Assembly (NCBI GenBank): GCA_964016885.1
Contig: OZ024742.1
Coordinates: 249,922,001-249,986,000, forward strand
Reading direction: 5' to 3'
Length of the DNA: 64,000 bases
From: Eledone cirrhosa
Taxonomy: Eukaryota
The position numbers and the translations under genes are program-made. Below the pieces are notes generated by a model. It was given only the letters and a program-made list of their open reading frames with translations, was not told the DNA's origin and ran no database searches. Positions 12,396 through 52,175 of the stretch are shown in pieces (positions within the stretch are counted from its first letter, which is position 1; each line of letters starts with the position of its first letter).

Positions 12396-12666
12396 TATAT
12401 ATATATAATCAAGATTTAGCAAATAAGAAAAAGTTTCAAAATAAATTTTTAAAAATTCACTGTACCTGCTATGGTTACCTTTACCGTACCTTTACCCTAT
12501 ATGTATTTTGCGTGTAGGGATATATACTTTATTATATATATATATATATATATATATACATACATATATATACGGGTCACTTTTACGACCTTTCAGACCT
12601 GTGTTAGCTGGGGACGAGGTCATATATTTTATCGTTCCTGAGGTTTTTAACCCTAGGAAAGGAAAA

Positions 12667-12749
12667 TGCTTCTCTGATGATCTTTGTTTTTCCATTAATA
12701 TCCATGTGATATCTAATGTTTTGCAAAGTGAAACTGTACAGTAAGGGCC
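12667..12749 (+). ncRNA. Type I hammerhead ribozyme
   Basis: ttct-CTGATGA-tctttg...caaagt-GAAAC-tgtaca-GTA-aggg; palindromic stem III actgtacagt. Confidence 0.7.
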
Positions 12750-13184
12750 ATTTGAATAGGTAAATATTTATATTATATTTTTTAATTTTGATTAATTTTA
12801 ATTTTAAATTAATTTTGATTTATTTTGAAAAATTGGTTGAATTTTACTTGTTCTGCTTATCTTGATATTAAGTTCTGGTATATCAAATTATTACCATAGA
12901 ACCACCTTGAATCATAGACAACCTATGTATTTCTGGGGGTACCTTGTACCCTTAGGCATATTTACTTTATTCATTATGCTCCGTTATGTAGAGAACAAAT
13001 CTGTCGTTCTATTTAGCTGCTATTTTTTTAGCGGCGACTATAGACAACAAGTCTGTGATTTCCCGCCTTCACTTCACACCGGCATATATACGGGTCACTT
13101 TTACGACCTTTCAGACCTGTGATAGCTGGGGACGAGGTCATATATTTTATCGTTCCTGAGGTTTTTAACCCTAGGAAAGGAAAA

Positions 13185-13267
13185 TGCTTCTCTGATGATC
13201 TTTGTTTTTCCATTAATATCCATGTGATATCTAATGTTTTGCAAAGTGAAACTGTACAGTAAGGGCC
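13185..13267 (+). ncRNA. Type I hammerhead ribozyme (tandem copy)
   Basis: Identical to 12667-12749, 518 bp downstream. Confidence 0.7.
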
Positions 13268-13489
13268 ATTTGAATAGGTAAATATTTATATTATATTTTT
13301 TAATTTTGATTAATTTTAATTTTAAATTAATTTTGATTTATTTTGAAAAATTGGTTGAATTTTACTTGTTCTGCTTATCTCGATACATATGTGTGTGTGT
13401 GTGTAACGTGTCATAACGTGTCATAACTTGTTCTAACGTGTCATACCTTGTTCTAACATGAACCCTTAAATGCATATTGCAGCCGTCAG

Positions 13490-17549: not shown

Positions 17550-18078
17550 ATATTATTATACTTTGGGAGGGTCATGTTGCCAATAAGAAACACACGCACC
17601 AGTTGCTTTCACTCCAATTTATTATAAATTAAATTATAAATTAAAACATTTATAAATATCCGGTTGGTTGGTTGGTTCCACAACCGGACGGTTGTTCATA
17701 TATTGTCAAAGTTCTTTCGTCACACATTTTGTGACCTCTTCACTAACTGTGGATTATTTTCTTTGTTTTGTGCCTCTCCTTTGTTCTGTCCTACGCCATT
17801 TGGTTTTTCTCAACACACACAAAAGCAAGATGGCGTAGGAGAGAACAAAGGAGAGGCACAAAACAAACAAAAAAATCCTCAGTCACTGAAGAGGGCACAG
17901 AATGTGTGACGAACGAACTTTGACAATATATGAACAACCGTCCGGTTGTGGAACCAACCAACCAACCGGAAATTTATAAATGTTTAAATTTATAATTTAA
18001 TTTATAATAAATTGGAGTGAAAGCATTGATGCATGTGTTTCTTTTTGGCAACATGACCCTCCCAAAGTATAACAATAT
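17550..18078. mobile_element. ~520-bp palindromic element with an HHR in each arm
   Basis: ~250-bp inverted arms around ~17810; HHR + 17882-17924, HHR - 17705-17747; homologue at 36940-37400, fragment near 60520-60690. Confidence 0.8.
17882..17924 (+). ncRNA. Type I hammerhead ribozyme
   Basis: gtca-CTGAAGA-gggcacagaatgtgtgac-GAAC-gaac-TT-tgac; the other three copies have GAAA; stem I gtca/tgac. Confidence 0.65.
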
Positions 18079-18298: not shown

Positions 18299-20317
18299 GT
18301 TTCTTTTATTTGCCACTAGGGCATCAAAAGTGGGACAAGTACAAAGGGGGGAGTTTACACAAAAAGGCGTCCTCAATAAGGAGGAGGCAATAACAAAATA
18401 TAAAAATAAAATAAGATATATCAAAAAATAAAATTTATAACAAAATCCTCAATAGAGAGGAGGGGCCTTGGGGGGTCGCACACACCCCCGAAAAAAGTGT
18501 GCAACCCTTTTCCTCAGGAGCACACGAAATGATATCGGAAGAAACGGACCAGTTGTTGGCCAGAGAGAAAGGTGCCTGACCTCAGTCCTTTCAGACGCGT
18601 CCACCATACAACCTCTTTCGCCATGGCTATTACGCACAGAAACACCGCCTCTGCTTCATCTTTGAAGGGGGGAGGCGGCTTGATCATTACAATAGACTCG
18701 GTGGTCAACCGGATCGGTCCCACCCTTGACAGCAGTTGTTCGACATAGCCCCACAGATCGGCTACGCCCGAGCAGTGTACCAATGCGTGTGCAACGGTTT
18801 CCTCGTCGCACACGCATCTGGGACAGATCTTTTTGGCGGGGTCCCTACCCGGGCGCCCGTGTCTGTAGAGCCTTTCTCGAACGGGTAAAGCCCCTCGGTA
18901 GCACTGCCAGGCCAGGGACTTCTGGAAGTTGACCATAGGTCCCGGGCTGAATGTCCTACCGAACAGGCTGGCCAGTTCGTCCTCCTCCATGTCTAGGGCT
19001 TCTCCGAGGGCGTCGTCGCACCTGCTGCGTACCAGCCCTCTATAGAATGTTGCGGTGGAGTCTCCACTGATAACCGGATCCGCCTGCCAGAGGGCGGTGA
19101 GCGCCTGGGCACACTCAGTGTGCCAGGCGCCCAGTTTTCTCGGTCTTTGCTTGACCCAGGATTGCAGCTCGGTGAGTGAGACGAGTCTGGGAAAGGTTCG
19201 TCTCACAAACGAGGCCCACACCGGTTGTCCGGTGAGGAATACGTAGAGGTGCCGTAGCCTTAATGCGTGTTTACGCATCATTAGCCACGGCATCCCCAGC
19301 CCTCCTTTCGAAGGGTGTTGACAGCAGATGGATCTCCTCACCATAGGAGCCCGCCTCTTCCAAAGGAATTGGAAGAGCGCGCGCTCCATCTTGGTGAGGG
19401 TTTCCCTTGGGCAGGGCACTACGGTCAGGCGGTAGTAGATGACGGACGCTATGTAGGTGTTCGCCACCTCCGCCCGACCTTTCGGGGATAGTTTGCAACT
19501 GGCCCACTTCTGGGTCAGTGCAAACACCCTGTTCGTAACCTCCGCCCAGTTTTTCTCCACCTGGAGGTCCGGTCCGAACCAGACCCCGAGCAACTTCACC
19601 GGGCCCTCCGTCCAGCGTCCGACGACGCCATCGGAGGGCATCGGTCTGCCTCTCCACGTGCCGAGTTGCAAACCGATCGACTTGTCCCGGTTCAGCTTAG
19701 CCCCTGTGAACTTTTCGTACTCCTCCAGTAAGGTGGCGACCGCCTCGATTTCGGAGGCCGTCGACACCATTACTGTCACGTCATCGGCGTAGGCTGACAC
19801 CGCTTTCCGCAATCCCGGTTCCAAAGGGATACCCTGCAACAACTCCAACTTCCGCAGTAGTGGCTCGAGAGTCAACACATACAGAAGGGAGGAGAGAGGG
19901 CACCCTTGTCGGATGGACCGCGCGATTTTGAACGGCTCCGAGAGGTAGCCGTTCACCTTGACCCTAGAGCAGATGCGGCTGCTGTGCATAGCAGTGATCC
20001 AGCCCCTGAAAACGGGTCCGAAGCCTGCCGCCGCTAGCACCGCATCCAGGTAACCATGGTCGACCCTATCGAACGCCTTAGATTGATCCAAGTTGATCAG
20101 AGCCCCACCAAAGCCGGGTTCGTTCCCAACCCTCTCTATGATGTATCGCATGAGGTGGAGGTTGTCATGGATGGACCTGGACGGGATAGCGCATGTCTGC
20201 GCATCTCCCACCAGGTTGCCCACGACAAGCGCCAACCTCTTTGCTAGCACCTTGGCCAAAATCTGTAACTCTGTATTTAGCAGAGTTATGGGCCTGAAGT
20301 TTCTTATTTCGTCCCCA
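18299..20317 (-). mobile_element. 5'-truncated Tx1/L1-clade non-LTR retrotransposon inserted in (TCTA)n
   Basis: RT motifs plus 3' UTR ending ggcaaataaaagaaa; (GATA)n on both flanks. Confidence 0.9.
18514..20316 (-). CDS. Tx1/L1-type ORF2 fragment: reverse transcriptase and C-terminal zinc-binding domain
   Basis: NFRPITLLNTELQILAKVLAKRL, LDQSKAFDRVDH, SIRQGCPLS, AYADD, GGLG, CPRC..EETVAHALVHC; the ORF-track N-terminus (YLSI repeats) is microsatellite. Confidence 0.92.
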   Translation of the reverse strand, partial: GDEIRNFRPITLLNTELQILAKVLAKRLALVVGNLVGDAQTCAIPSRSIHDNLHLMRYIIERVGNEPGFGGALINLDQSKAFDRVDHGYLDAVLAAAGFGPVFRGWITAMHSSRICSRVKVNGYLSEPFKIARSIRQGCPLSSLLYVLTLEPLLRKLELLQGIPLEPGLRKAVSAYADDVTVMVSTASEIEAVATLLEEYEKFTGAKLNRDKSIGLQLGTWRGRPMPSDGVVGRWTEGPVKLLGVWFGPDLQVEKNWAEVTNRVFALTQKWASCKLSPKGRAEVANTYIASVIYYRLTVVPCPRETLTKMERALFQFLWKRRAPMVRRSICCQHPSKGGLGMPWLMMRKHALRLRHLYVFLTGQPVWASFVRRTFPRLVSLTELQSWVKQRPRKLGAWHTECAQALTALWQADPVISGDSTATFYRGLVRSRCDDALGEALDMEEDELASLFGRTFSPGPMVNFQKSLAWQCYRGALPVRERLYRHGRPGRDPAKKICPRCVCDEETVAHALVHCSGVADLWGYVEQLLSRVGPIRLTTESIVMIKPPPPFKDEAEAVFLCVIAMAKEVVWWTRLKGLRSGTFLSGQQLVRFFRYHFVCS

Positions 20318-20320
20318 TAT

Positions 20321-20415
<95 letters not shown>

Positions 20416-20448
20416 GATATATATATAGAGAGAGAGATAGATAGATAG

Positions 20449-20538
<90 letters not shown>

Positions 20539-21405
20539 CGTAGATAGATAGATAGATAAAAATGCATACACGTACTTATGTGTGTGCGCGCTTGTATATG
20601 CCTGTATATGTATGTCTGTATGTTTGTATATGCATTCGAGTAGTTGTGCTAGATTCACTGACATGCCGCATCACAGTAATTTTAAAATGAATCAGCTCTA
20701 CTCTCGTATTTATACACGAAATAGTTTTGCAACTAGAAAGAAAACTAAACACCATTTTCACGTGATTGGTGTCTGTTCATGTATGTAGAAAAAACACAAC
20801 TTCAATCAGTGTGTATATAACTAAAGAGCTGGTAGGTGGGAGTAGGGTGTAGACGGCTAGAAGTTTGTGGAAGTGGGGAATGGTCGTAGAACTCAACCAC
20901 CAGCACTGCGGCGGTGGTGTATATCACAGTGGGATGGCTGACATATTTAACACAAGATGGACGGCCAATATATAGAACAGGGCGGTAGTGTTGACTGCAG
21001 GGCGATGGCAGTGGCGGTGTTTGTCAGAATATCAAAAGAATTGAAATACATTTTAAGGAGAGAGGAGAAAAAGAGGATGGTACGTACGAAGGAAATAAAT
21101 AAATAAATAAAGAAAGAAAGAAAGAAATAAAGAAAGAAAGAAAGAAAGAAGGAAAGAAAGAAAGAAAGAAAGAAAGAGCGAAAGAAAGAAGAAGAAGAAG
21201 AAGAAGAAGAAGAAGAAGAAGAAGAAGAAGAAGAAGAAGAAGAAGAAGAAGAAGAAGAAGAAGAAGAAGAAGAAGAAGAAGAAGAAATAGTTAAGGTTGG
21301 GCCAGAAGGAAGAGGAAGTAGAAAGTGGGAAAAAAAGGAGTATAAGAAGGGAAAACAAAATATTTTCACAACATGTAGGGGTGAGAAAGCTAAATTGAAA
21401 AACAC

Positions 21406-30929: not shown

Positions 30930-32136
30930 TATATATATAAATATATATTAAAATAACAGATTAATGTTTAAGCAAAGAATCGCTGCTTTCACCCTTAACG
31001 GGATCTTTTTAGTTTCAGAAGATTCCTCTTCGTATTTTAGTCTTCACATTTATTATTTTTACTATATATATATATAAAGACATTAAAGGGTTATATATTT
31101 ATAAGCACCTTGTTTTAGTTGGAATCAACTCATATTGGTTGCGGCCTGAATTCATTTTACAAAGAAACTAAATCGGCAAAAATACGAGGAGATACGAATA
31201 TATTGAAGGGTTGCACAGTTTGGTGCTTCTTAAATGATACCCCCCACAAAAAAAGAAAAGAATTTACTGCAACACTTTATTGTAACTAGGTTGTATTTTT
31301 TGTATATTTTCCTTTCTACCGTTTACAGGATCCTAAATGAAAACGAAATGAACCATAAGTATGTAGAAATAATATTACATAAGTGATTTGTTTTCATTGT
31401 GTGTACAAAGAAGTATTTAGTATCACGTTGATGAGGTTAGCTTTTCGATATTTGTTTTGATAATTCAACAAGATAATGAGTTAATACTAAGTTCCTGATG
31501 CAAGGTTTATTGTATTGATTGTTCAGTGCGGGTTTTGTAGCGGGTAGTGTAAACACGATGGATTTCGTTAAGTTCAATCCGTTTTTATAAAGTTATAAAA
31601 TAATTTTATGTCATGTGCTTTTCATTATCTGAATATATTCCCAAAATGAAATAACTCAAAATTCGTTAAGATAAAATTGATTGATTGATTTTGCTTTACA
31701 TCATTCAGAGCGAACAAGAAAATGGAAACCAGAAAGTTAATTTGGCAAGTTGACAAGGAGCCGAAGAGAGTTACCTCAGACTCGACTTCCCTCTAAACAA
31801 CAAGTGACCATATTACTACCTGAAGTGATGTCACTATTTTGATGTCTCTTGTTTTCTGGAGATATGGCCAAACTTGAGCCTTGAAACCTTGAAGAGCGCC
31901 TTTGTTCCATGTATGAACAAAAATATAATATAATATTATATATATATATGTTGGTTTATTTTATCCTCGGAGGACTAACAACACACCCAGGAGCTGGACA
32001 TATCGATGAATTGACAGAGTGGAACACATTTCAACAACATGTTTACCTATTTTTTCTACATTAATTCGTAATGCCTGATGAGGTCACAGACAATAATAGC
32101 AAAATTTAACATGTTTGACATACTTATTTATATATA

Positions 32137-32839
32137 TAGCAAAAGGAATAGGTAAATATAAAGCAAAGGGAATAGGTGAATATTTAAATTAGATTTTTAA
32201 TTTATTTTAAAAAATTGTTTGAATCTTGCTTGCTTCGCTTATCTCAATTTTATAGTTCTGGTATGTCAAAATAATGCCATAGAACAACCACTGTATCATA
32301 GACACCCTATATATTTCCAGAGGTACTTAGTACCTGTGGGGATATTGATCTCTTTTTATATAATCTCCGTTATGTAGAGAACAAATCCGTTGTTTTATTT
32401 AGCTACTATTTTTAGTGGCGTGATAGACAACACATCTATGTTTACTTCCGCTTCTACTAAGGGCTGGTTCATGCAAAGGTTAAGTTTACGGCCTCATTCG
32501 ATCCTGTACTAGCCGGAAGATGGCAATGTATTTTGCTGTTCCTGGGACTTTACGTCCTAGGTAGGGAAAATGCTTTCTGAAGATCTGAACATTTCCATTG
32601 GAAGTCCCTAGGATCTCCAATCTTTTGTGAAGTGAAACCGTCGGTAAAAGCAAAAGGAATAGGTGAATATTGAAATTATATTTTTTAATTTATTTTAAAA
32701 AGTTGTTTGAATCTTGCTTGCTCCTCTTATCTCAATTTTATAGTTCTGGTATGTCAAATTAATACCATAGAACAACCACTGTATCATAGACACCCTATAT
32801 ATTTCCAGATGTATTTAGTACCTGTGGGGATATTGATCT

Positions 32840-32841
<2 letters not shown>
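32137..32841 (+). mobile_element. Partial-tandem HHR element (homologue of 12565-13382)
   Basis: 32160-32352 repeated at 32647-32841, with the HHR directly before the second repeat. Confidence 0.8.
32571..32652 (+). ncRNA. Type I hammerhead ribozyme
   Basis: tgcttt-CTGAAGA-(long stem II)-GAAAC-cgtcg-GTA-aaagca; perfect 6-bp stem I. Confidence 0.75.
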
Positions 32842-32905
<64 letters not shown>

Positions 32906-36939: not shown

Positions 36940-37397
36940 ATATTGTTGTACTTTGGGAGGGTCATGCTGCCAATAGAAACACATGCACCTGTTGGTATTC
37001 ACTTTCATTTATTATAAGTTTCCGGTTGGTCGGTTGGCTAGATAACCGGAAGGTTGTTTATATATTGTCAAAGTTCTTTCGTCAGACATTCTGTCTCCTC
37101 CACAGTGACTAAGTTTTTATTTTGTGTGCCTCGTTTGTTTTGTCCTTCACTATCTTGTCCTACACCATCTTCTTTCCTACACCAAAATGGTGAAGGACAG
37201 AACAATGATGAGACACAAAATAGAAATCTAGTAACTGAGGAAGTCACAGAATGTGTGACGAAAGAGCTTTGACAATATATAAACAACCTTTCGGTCATCG
37301 AACCAACCAACAAACTGGAAACTTATAATAAATGGAAGTGAAAAGCAACAGGTGCCTGTGTTTTTATTTGGCAGCATGACCCTCCCAAAGTATAACA

Positions 37398-37400
<3 letters not shown>
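36940..37400. mobile_element. Palindromic element with HHRs at 37231-37273 (+) and 37067-37109 (-)
   Basis: gtaa-CTGAGGA-agtcacagaatgtgtgac-GAAA-gagc-TT-tgac; homologue of 17550-18078. Confidence 0.8.
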
Positions 37401-37466
<66 letters not shown>

Positions 37467-37666: not shown

Positions 37667-38172
<506 letters not shown>

Positions 38173-38248
38173 CATACTCTGCTCTATGAGGGCATCGTAT
38201 GCTCAAACGGCCTACCGCGTACGGAGGCTTTAAGCATCCAACTGCAAT

Positions 38249-38312
<64 letters not shown>

Positions 38313-38608: not shown

Positions 38609-39206
38609 CATATATATATACACACACTCACACACACACACATATATATATATATATTCACACATATATATATACATATATATATACATATATATATGTA
38701 TATATATACATATATATATACACATATATATACATATATATATATACATATATATATACATATATATATATATTTATATATATAAACACATATATATATA
38801 CACACACACACATATATATATATAACGAAGGATGTGTGATAATTATTTTATTTTATTTTGTTCCTTTACCATCTTATTCCTTCTACCACTTTATCACATT
38901 TTTTTTAGCTGACTCCAACAATAACACAAGGATAGATGTATGATGTACCTAACAATAACAAGAACAGCAACTACAGATTGGCTTGCTTCAGAACGAATTT
39001 CTATAGACTTTTGACTGATGAATGTTCTAACAACTGACCAATAAGAGGAGAAGAGGCCCTTTGACGCTGAAATTCGTTTGTTTGAATTCATATGATTCCA
39101 GTTCCTCAGTGAAACAACAACCCAACCAGGAACTGGGCATATCAGAGTATTGACAAAGTTATACACCTCAACAACATGTGTACTCGTCTCTAGCACACAA
39201 ATTCGG

Positions 39207-39261
39207 ACTGCCTGAAGAGGTCACAGCCAAAGATGGCTGTCACCGAAATATATATAGCAGT
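39207..39261 (+). ncRNA. Type I hammerhead ribozyme
   Basis: actgc-CTGAAGA-ggtcacagcca aaga tggctgtcacc-GAAA-tatata-TA-gcagt. Confidence 0.85.
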
Positions 39262-39604
39262 AATAAACGAAACCAAATTTTAAACATTTGACTTATTTAT
39301 TTTATTTAATTTAACATTACTCCGGAGTAACCAAAATCCCTGCGCACTTCGTGGAGTGCTCCAATCTGCATACTGTACAACCAACATATACTCAAAATTT
39401 ATATATATATATATATATAAAAGTTATACACCTCAACAACATGTATATATATATAAATTTTGAGTATATGTTGGTTGCATGCCAACACCTCAGTATGCAG
39501 ATTGGAGCACTCCACGAAGTGCGCAGGGTTTTTGGTTACTCCGGAGTAATGTTAAATAAAATTAAATAAATAAGTCAAATGTTTAAAATGTGGCTTCGTT
39601 TATT

Positions 39605-39659
39605 ACTGCTATATATATTTCGGTGACAGTCATCTTTGGCTGTGACCTCTTCAGGCAGT
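39605..39659 (-). ncRNA. Type I hammerhead ribozyme (inverted copy)
   Basis: Reverse complement of 39207-39261 with one stem II change. Confidence 0.8.
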
Positions 39660-40063
39660 CCGAATTAGTGTGGTAGAGACGAGTACACATGTTGTTGAGC
39701 TGTATAACTTTTACGCTCAGTCGCTTCACGCCATGCAACTGGGATAAGCAGCGGCCAAATGAGCCTTCTGGTTTAAGACAGACTTTAGACTTTTATATAT
39801 ATATATATATATGGAAATATGATGTAAATTTGAAAGCAGTGCCCCACCATAACCCTACATGTAATGCATAAAACTAACAGAACTGAATATTCAAGTTTGT
39901 ATATATGTTAGTATGTATATAAATAAGGATGGATTCAGTTAGAAACTGGTTAGTACATTACTTAATAGAGTACCTAATACTTGGTGTAGTATAGAGTATA
40001 TTTATGTTATGAGTCGAGAATAAGCTGTTGAAACGGCAAGAGCTCACCCCTCGGGTCCCGACT

Positions 40064-51169: not shown

Positions 51170-51525
51170 TGATATAAGTTAAAATAATGAAATAAAATAT
51201 CAAGTCATTAGAGATATACTTCACTGCTTTACGATCGTTTCTAGATGATGATAATACATTGTAGCCATACACCGTTATTGATCTATGTAAGGTTAGTTAC
51301 AAAATATCAGATAAAGAGAATATTTACTTACATGCATATCACCAGCTTTTGAAAACAGCTGGTGATATGCATGTAAGTAAATATTCTCTTTATCTGATAT
51401 TTTGTAACTAACCTTACATAGATCAATAACGGAGTATAGCTACAATGTATTATCATCATCTAGAAACGATCGTAAAGCAGTGAAGTATATCTCTAATTAA
51501 TTGATTTTTTATTTCATTGTTTTAA

Positions 51526-51532
<7 letters not shown>
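51170..51532. mobile_element. Palindromic element (~175-bp arms) with a U3:A8 HHR-like motif at 51345-51478
   Basis: gctt-TTGAAAA-cagctggtgat...atcatcatcta-GAAAC-gatc-GTA-aagc. Confidence 0.7.
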
Positions 51533-51978: not shown

Positions 51979-52118
51979 TTTGAGTATATGCTGGTTGTTT
52001 ACCGATTCCAGTTCCTCAGAGGAATAACAACACAAACAGGAGCTGGACATATCGATGTATTGACTGAGTAAAACACACTTCAACAACATGTGTACCTATC
52101 TTTTCCACACCAATTCGG

Positions 52119-52175
52119 ACTGCCTGAAGATGTCACAGCCAATGATGGCTGTCACCGAAATATATATATAGCAGT
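52119..52175 (+). ncRNA. Type I hammerhead ribozyme (family of 39207)
   Basis: actgc-CTGAAGA-tgtcacagccaatgatggctgtcacc-GAAA-tatatata-TA-gcagt. Confidence 0.75.

Follow-up and report, generated by a model that had tools for sequence, protein, structure and literature searches.

The window analysed here, 64,000 nt of the Eledone cirrhosa genome (contig OZ024742.1, positions 249,922,001 to 249,986,000), contains a short repeated element with a predicted hammerhead ribozyme, and one copy of it starts at the very nucleotide where the ribozyme would cut. The question raised by this locus is whether the ribozyme sets the ends of such insertions, and, if it does not, what does. The features of this focal copy, and of a related copy elsewhere in the window, are listed in Table 1.

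A 487-nt unit with a hammerhead motif

The focal copy consists of one complete unit of 487 nt (32160-32646), starting at the first base after the predicted cut, and a partial repeat with 93.6% identity to the first unit over 204 nt (32647-32850), in which the templated sequence stops at ~32843, where (TA)n takes over. This is the arrangement that the first-pass annotation had read from the sequence, and the ~22-nt duplicate that it placed ahead of the unit is there as well: 32138-32159 corresponds to unit positions 3-24 and is identical to the second copy at 21/22 positions, and it could have arisen either by a template jump at the 5' junction or by a later local duplication. The element is hosted by the TA tail of a damaged fragment of another repeat family. 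Coding capacity is absent from the unit (the longest stop-free frame is 67 aa). Unit coordinates within +36-203 may be off by +1 (a 1-nt register shift).

Table 1. Positions of the focal insertion, its parts and flanks, and the sister-family copy in the window
Feature	Positions	Strand	Remark
Fragment of another repeat family, minimal hammerhead, damaged	31964..32128	+	73-85% identity to 39103-39230 and 52013-52149
Left (TA)5 target remnant	32129..32138	.	Sequence reading
22-nt extra piece	32138..32159	+	Unit positions 3-24
Complete 487-nt unit without ORF, predicted monomer of a circular RNA	32160..32646	+	Period 487 nt
Site A, unit ~+90-95, read through in the focal copy	32249..32254	+	Fixed 3' end used most often in the family
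Predicted hairpin directly 3' of site A (unit +96-126)	32255..32285	+	Folding; also predicted in the 518-nt sister family
Type I hammerhead, long stem II with U.U at its base	32571..32652	+	Predicted cut after 32646
Incomplete second round (unit +1 to ~+197), finishing at site B ('tail' end)	32647..32843	+	
Right (TA)n tract	32843..32899	.	Sequence reading
Sister-family copy, 518-nt unit, 73% identity to the 487-nt family	12566..13385	+	Ends at its site A

As read from the sequence, stem I of the focal hammerhead is formed by 32571-76 and 32647-52, the base of the long stem II by a U.U pair (32584/32633) and stem III by ACC-gtc-GGU; CUGAAGA occupies 32577-83 and GAAA 32634-37, and the cut is predicted after A32646. 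When folded without constraint, this copy does not adopt the active structure as its minimum free energy state (z 0.09); the active fold reaches -16.1 kcal/mol under constraint against -20.2 kcal/mol. An Rfam search of the window gave no hammerhead match at the gathering threshold or at E<=10. In the whole genome, the pattern CUGAWGA-U...U-GAAAC...GUA had 2312 matches while its reversed control had 16, so the motif is not a product of chance. Among 13 family representatives, positions left free by the pattern were paired in 58/65 cases for stem I, 45/52 for stem II and 12/13 for stem III, against 56%, 40% and 62%, respectively, when families were mismatched. None of 20000 cross-family permutations equalled the observed pairing total, which is not a formal probability because the 13 representatives, though from different families or subfamilies, are related; the search pattern itself imposes the U.U pair at the base of stem II. 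Such covariation of the stems across families indicates a genuine ribozyme motif at the family level, and the first-pass prediction of a hammerhead at 32571-32652, with a putative cut after GUA (32646), stands to that extent.

At least 2,300 hammerheads with the U.U pair and a long stem II make up a clan of about ten families, mostly with a palindromic stem III. The periods of the related families are 457-761 nt, and one of them includes a trimer (G000:C1:129193258-129194262). Loci of this clan include L265-L294. The axolotl hammerhead HHR_Amex2 likewise carries U.U at the foot of stem II; its cleavage is weak in the monomer and stronger in the dimer (PMC7229834).

By these sequence features the 487-nt element falls within the definition of a non-LTR retrozyme, in line with the retrozyme-type element suggested at first pass. 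With metazoan non-LTR retrozymes (Cervera & de la Pena 2020, PMC7229834; Li et al. 2026 preprint 10.64898/2026.07.22.740005) it shares the lack of ORFs, one type I hammerhead per unit, a short stem III, low GC, no LTR seen and the coexistence of Penelope-like elements (PLEs). It differs from them in the length of its unit and of stem II (about 50 nt), and in occurring as dispersed copies of 0.1-2.5 units and inverted pairs rather than long arrays. Plant LTR retrozymes also have a hammerhead and a proposed circular RNA intermediate, but their hammerheads are of type III and they carry LTRs, PBS/PPT and 4-bp TSDs (PMC7229834 and the 2026 preprint), whereas the element here has a type I hammerhead, no LTR and ends in TA tracts.

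Fixed 3' ends and two-armed insertions

The 2.996 Gb genome was searched with the 487-nt unit, which gave at least 2656 candidates (40 of them scored), and 30 loci were taken from these. A further 84 loci came from the exact anchor +61-86 (138 matches, the loci being taken among the first 100 listed) and 70 from the anchor +164-187 (216 matches), so that the pooled family sample comprised 170 unique loci with 273 arms. The 3' ends of these arms fell at site A (+84-99) in 137/273 cases, at site B (+185-215) in 85/273 and elsewhere in 51/273, and they were followed by a TA tract in 130/137, 79/85 and 12/51 cases, respectively; A or B thus served as the 3' end of 222/273 arms, 209 of them in TA tracts. 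Both sites (~+92 and ~+198) finish in a TATA word of the unit. A third such word, TATATA at +149-154, was not used by any of the 12 TA-followed ends outside A and B, and TATA microhomology as the sole cause of the 3' ends was therefore ruled out. Directly 3' of site A lies the predicted hairpin, a candidate protein-binding site, and the stop rate of A arms climbs from about +129.

Relative to the GUA site, where the first-pass annotation had placed the start of the insertion, it is these 3' ends that are fixed, while the 5' ends are spread all round the unit in the 170-locus sample. TA occurs within 20 nt of the 5' end in 64/86 single-arm loci. Recurrent 5' stops were noticed near +400-407, directly 3' of a strong hairpin. 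Some loci, such as L004, L007 and L024, carry at least two complete hammerheads and represent source copies; the focal copy has only one hammerhead and so could not release a monomer. Endonuclease or reverse transcriptase (EN/RT) fragments were detected at 6/245 family loci, and those that could be located fall outside the arms.

Head-to-head two-armed insertions were found at 67 loci. The 17/67 in which one outer end lay at neither site were excluded, and in the remaining 50 the outer ends were A and B in 48 cases, A and A in two and B and B in none, compared with 25 mixed pairs expected (p 1e-12); AA and BB pairs were detectable by both anchors. The B arm exceeds the A arm by a tail of 108 nt, which in AB pairs is present on one arm. 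At 6/68 inverted junctions, both arms end within 5 nt of the same unit position, a fold-back-like arrangement.

A tail on one of two inverted arms is described for PLEs (PMC3846280, PMC8557442). In vitro, a purified PLE protein cuts AT-rich DNA and both strands are extended, with two internal RNA start sites bounding the tail (PMC11167929). The use of one site per arm is the PLE 'tail' footprint, which is also seen in local TA-targeting PLEs of the Neptune/Nematis type. Elements that combine an RT, a CX4CXXC linker and, C-terminally, a GIY-YIG domain are abundant in the genome (at least 10,595 candidates), and this linker is assigned to Neptune and Nematis PLEs (PMC8557442). Three PLEs with both ends readable (L250, L256 and L264) have TA ends and a tail of 40-65 nt on one arm only. 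Neptune/Nematis-type PLEs with minimal hammerheads of the U3-A8 variant (PMC4209133) were noted at L245, L246, L250, L253, L258 and L264; in one such family the ends lie 76 and ~143 nt past the cut. Long palindromic PLE insertions were noted at L250 and L256.

With EN+ PLEs of the Neptune/Nematis type (PMC8557442, PMC3846280, PMC11167929), the 487-nt element shares 5' truncation, partial tandems, an inverted 5'-truncated arm, a tail that may be present at one end, a pair of internal start sites that lie downstream of the hammerhead, and microsatellite or AT-rich targets. It differs in having no RT or GIY-YIG ORF, in its type of hammerhead, in the length of the tail (about 108 nt against 30-40 nt in those sources) and in showing no match to the local PLEs examined. 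It would behave like a non-autonomous PLE and is not an autonomous one. No autonomous PLE sharing sequence with it was found among 50 PLE loci (of the at least 10,595 candidates), and the hammerheads of the examined PLEs are minimal U3-A8 types, unlike the long-stem U.U type, so the partner PLE can be assigned by type only. Two apparent exceptions were rejected: a 459-nt relative beside the PLE at L246 and a hammerhead upstream of the PLE at L264 each proved to be a separate insertion and not that PLE's own end.

Elsewhere in the window, palindromic repeats were observed at 39155-39711, 17550-18078, 51172-51532, 37669-38307 and 36940-37401, which are probably further two-armed insertions of the PLE type. 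Hammerhead-like motifs occur at 39212, 39654, 52124, 37235, 38036, 46667, 4187 and 28534, some of them within the palindromic repeats, and a 718-codon open frame on the minus strand (18514-20670) with RVT_1 and zf-RVT domains is LINE-like.

Circular or linear template

Copying for more than one round, which the first-pass annotation had proposed for the focal copy, is common in the family: 34/189 anchor-found arms exceed one unit, none of these exceeds two, and in the length-selected sets arms reach 2.3-2.5 units (L004, L197 and L198). Divergence between repeats is 6.0% inside an arm and 10.2% across loci (n=41); for the paired arms of an insertion it is 6.2%, against 10.5% across loci (n=54). 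Differences between upstream and downstream repeats share no direction (p 0.39 with 45 pairs, p 0.71 with 25), the outcome predicted for repeated reading of one monomer, and the repeats of L214 show no difference over 488 nt. Arms longer than one unit without consistent repeat differences favour a circular template, and we consider a circular RNA the likely one. The circular fold of the 487-nt unit has a z of -5.2 against 40 shuffles.

On the whole, the sequences are probably best explained by an ORF-less hammerhead non-LTR retrozyme, whose copies end at two internal sites in (TA)n and would have been made by a Penelope-type RT-endonuclease from a circular 487-nt RNA. In the proposed series of steps, a transcript with two hammerheads would cleave itself and be ligated into a circle. 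A Neptune/Nematis-type PLE protein would bind near +96 to +220 and cut a (TA)n tract, the DNA ends of which would prime at site A (~+92), site B (~+198) or both, on the UAUA words there. Extension of both ends, one per site, would give head-to-head arms with the 108-nt tail on only one of them. Reverse transcription would run backwards through the sealed junction and stop at random, about four times more commonly after about one unit, and where the template was occasionally open at the ribozyme site, the arm would stop there.

The strongest competitor keeps the same PLE machinery and sites and takes the template to be linear, a mostly uncleaved read-through transcript of rare copies with two to three units, in which the ribozyme is incidental. 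Multi-unit arms, together with the trimer in the related family, mean that linear multimer templates exist, and in vitro PLE insertion used unprocessed RNA, hammerhead cleavage not being needed (PMC11167929). A linear template would equally lead one to expect read-through at the cut and a stop rate that rises with length. The stop rate rises about fourfold beyond ~450 nt from the priming site, and in the stretch +1-95 stops are about six times more frequent on the second pass (22/1143 nt) than on the first (31/10496); this rise with length fits a circle, but limited processivity too, and the change point (454 nt for A arms, 534 nt with CI 442-554 for B arms) is not sharply at 487. Against a linear template, progeny would become one unit shorter with each round, inherited fixed differences between master units are expected and none were seen, and the hammerhead stems covary across the 13 representatives. 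Nor were long arrays present among the matches listed (the first 100 places in three of the searches). Shared 5' flanks were limited to two pairs among the 86 single-arm loci, which we tentatively read as a shared target repeat and not as transduction from a linear master. Taken together, we regard the linear template as unlikely, though it deserves more weight than the other alternatives.

Mobilisation of animal retrozymes by PLEs from circular RNA has been proposed before, with the mechanism left open, and circular retrozyme RNAs and an active hammerhead with U.U in stem II have been reported (PMC7229834). The link to PLEs has also been argued from co-occurrence and pLTR similarity (10.64898/2026.07.22.740005). 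In the portions of these two sources available to us, two priming sites with (TA)n targeting were not found described for retrozymes, nor was the mapping of insertion ends found in the latter; the consulted part of PMC13282606 has no mention of hammerheads or retrozymes. Our literature search, which mostly covered sources other than subscription papers and supplements, where related families may be described, returned no paper that maps retrozyme insertion ends. Since the class of element and the one-sided tail were already known, what is added here is mechanism and not a new kind of system. The insertions carry the PLE footprint in a countable form: two priming sites are used, one on each arm, the ribozyme junction is read through, and in a young family stops at the cut are slightly in excess. 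Exact RNA sites can be named for mutation in the in vitro PLE assay, and Rfam missed, in the window, a type of hammerhead that numbers at least 2,300 copies.

A wider version of the favoured circular reading, in which thousands of U.U circles (457-761 nt) are rolled by a dimeric Penelope enzyme using two sites per (TA)n break, with rare stops at a re-opened junction, is offered tentatively, as somewhat less than an even prospect. If true, it would explain the PLE tail, inverted arms and pseudo-LTRs by one mechanism; the genome would then record the whole retrozyme cycle and provide a minimal substrate of ~500 nt for tests.

Starts at the ribozyme cut site

The focal unit does start at 32160, as the first-pass annotation had claimed in placing the beginning of the insertion at the cleavage site, but this is not a rule of the family. 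Genome-wide, 245 exact matches to the 25-mer +1-25 are preceded by GGTA and read through the cut site, the one match preceded by a non-GG sequence is a read-through copy carrying a small deletion, and among these exact matches true starts exactly at the cut site number zero. Starts at +2 to +4 number four, about the background stop level. At the first crossing of the cut site 4/135 arms stop in the interval -2..+4, and this rate (0.0050 per nt) equals the overall one; at the second crossing 2/25 do so (0.014 versus 0.02-0.03 locally), in counts that exclude the focal copy and the 51 arms with other 3' ends; inclusion of the misclassed L022, which stops at +2, makes the second crossing 3/26. 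The cut site does not set the start of the 487-nt family and no excess of stops is found there. Starts at the cut possibly survive as a minority class of about 5% of arms or fewer.

These counts bear directly on the idea that the insertions are copies of self-cleaved RNA whose 5' end at GUA sets the start of the element. The focal copy, which stops at +1 and again at +3, and 4/84 arms of the sister family that stop at the cut agree with it, whereas the absence of exact starts beside 245 read-through matches, and stops near the cut at no more than local rates in both crossings, refute it as a general rule. We consider it improbable as an account of the family, and possible for the focal copy. 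The latter may be a rare cut-site product, or its start may reflect chance plus local duplication. Under the circular-template reading, it would be a single arm primed at B and copied for 1.4 rounds, with its end at the cut site by happenstance. A DNA-level origin, by tandem or satellite duplication or as a palindromic element without an RNA step and with a decayed ribozyme-like motif, would fit the missing Rfam match and the common palindromic copies, but it is made very improbable by the polarity of fixed 3' and ragged 5' ends relative to the ribozyme strand, the TA targeting, the A/B asymmetry and the covariation of the stems.

The younger 518-nt sister family presents a similar arrangement. 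In the window copy (12566-13385) cuts are predicted after 12743 and 13261 and the repeats are 99% identical. The 3' sites of this family lie at +125 (A) and +227-234 (B), all of the 11 distinct clean two-armed insertions read by eye are AB, and the circular fold of the unit has a z of -5.7. Five matches (four independent) start without the upstream AG, versus 70 that read through. Among the fetched loci 3/84 arms stop exactly at the predicted cut and 1/84 within 1 nt of it, so that 4/84 stop there against about 0.4-0.6 expected (Poisson p 0.001-0.003), with a background of 0.002-0.003 per nt taken from upstream of the cut and some of the 84 arms coming from a length-selected set. This excess suggests, indirectly, cutting by this type of ribozyme at the predicted site, with a few percent of arms terminating at it, and the sister family is the best candidate for bench work. 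The four cut-site stops (L206, L296, L297 and L299) apparently join an inverted stretch of the element and not host DNA.
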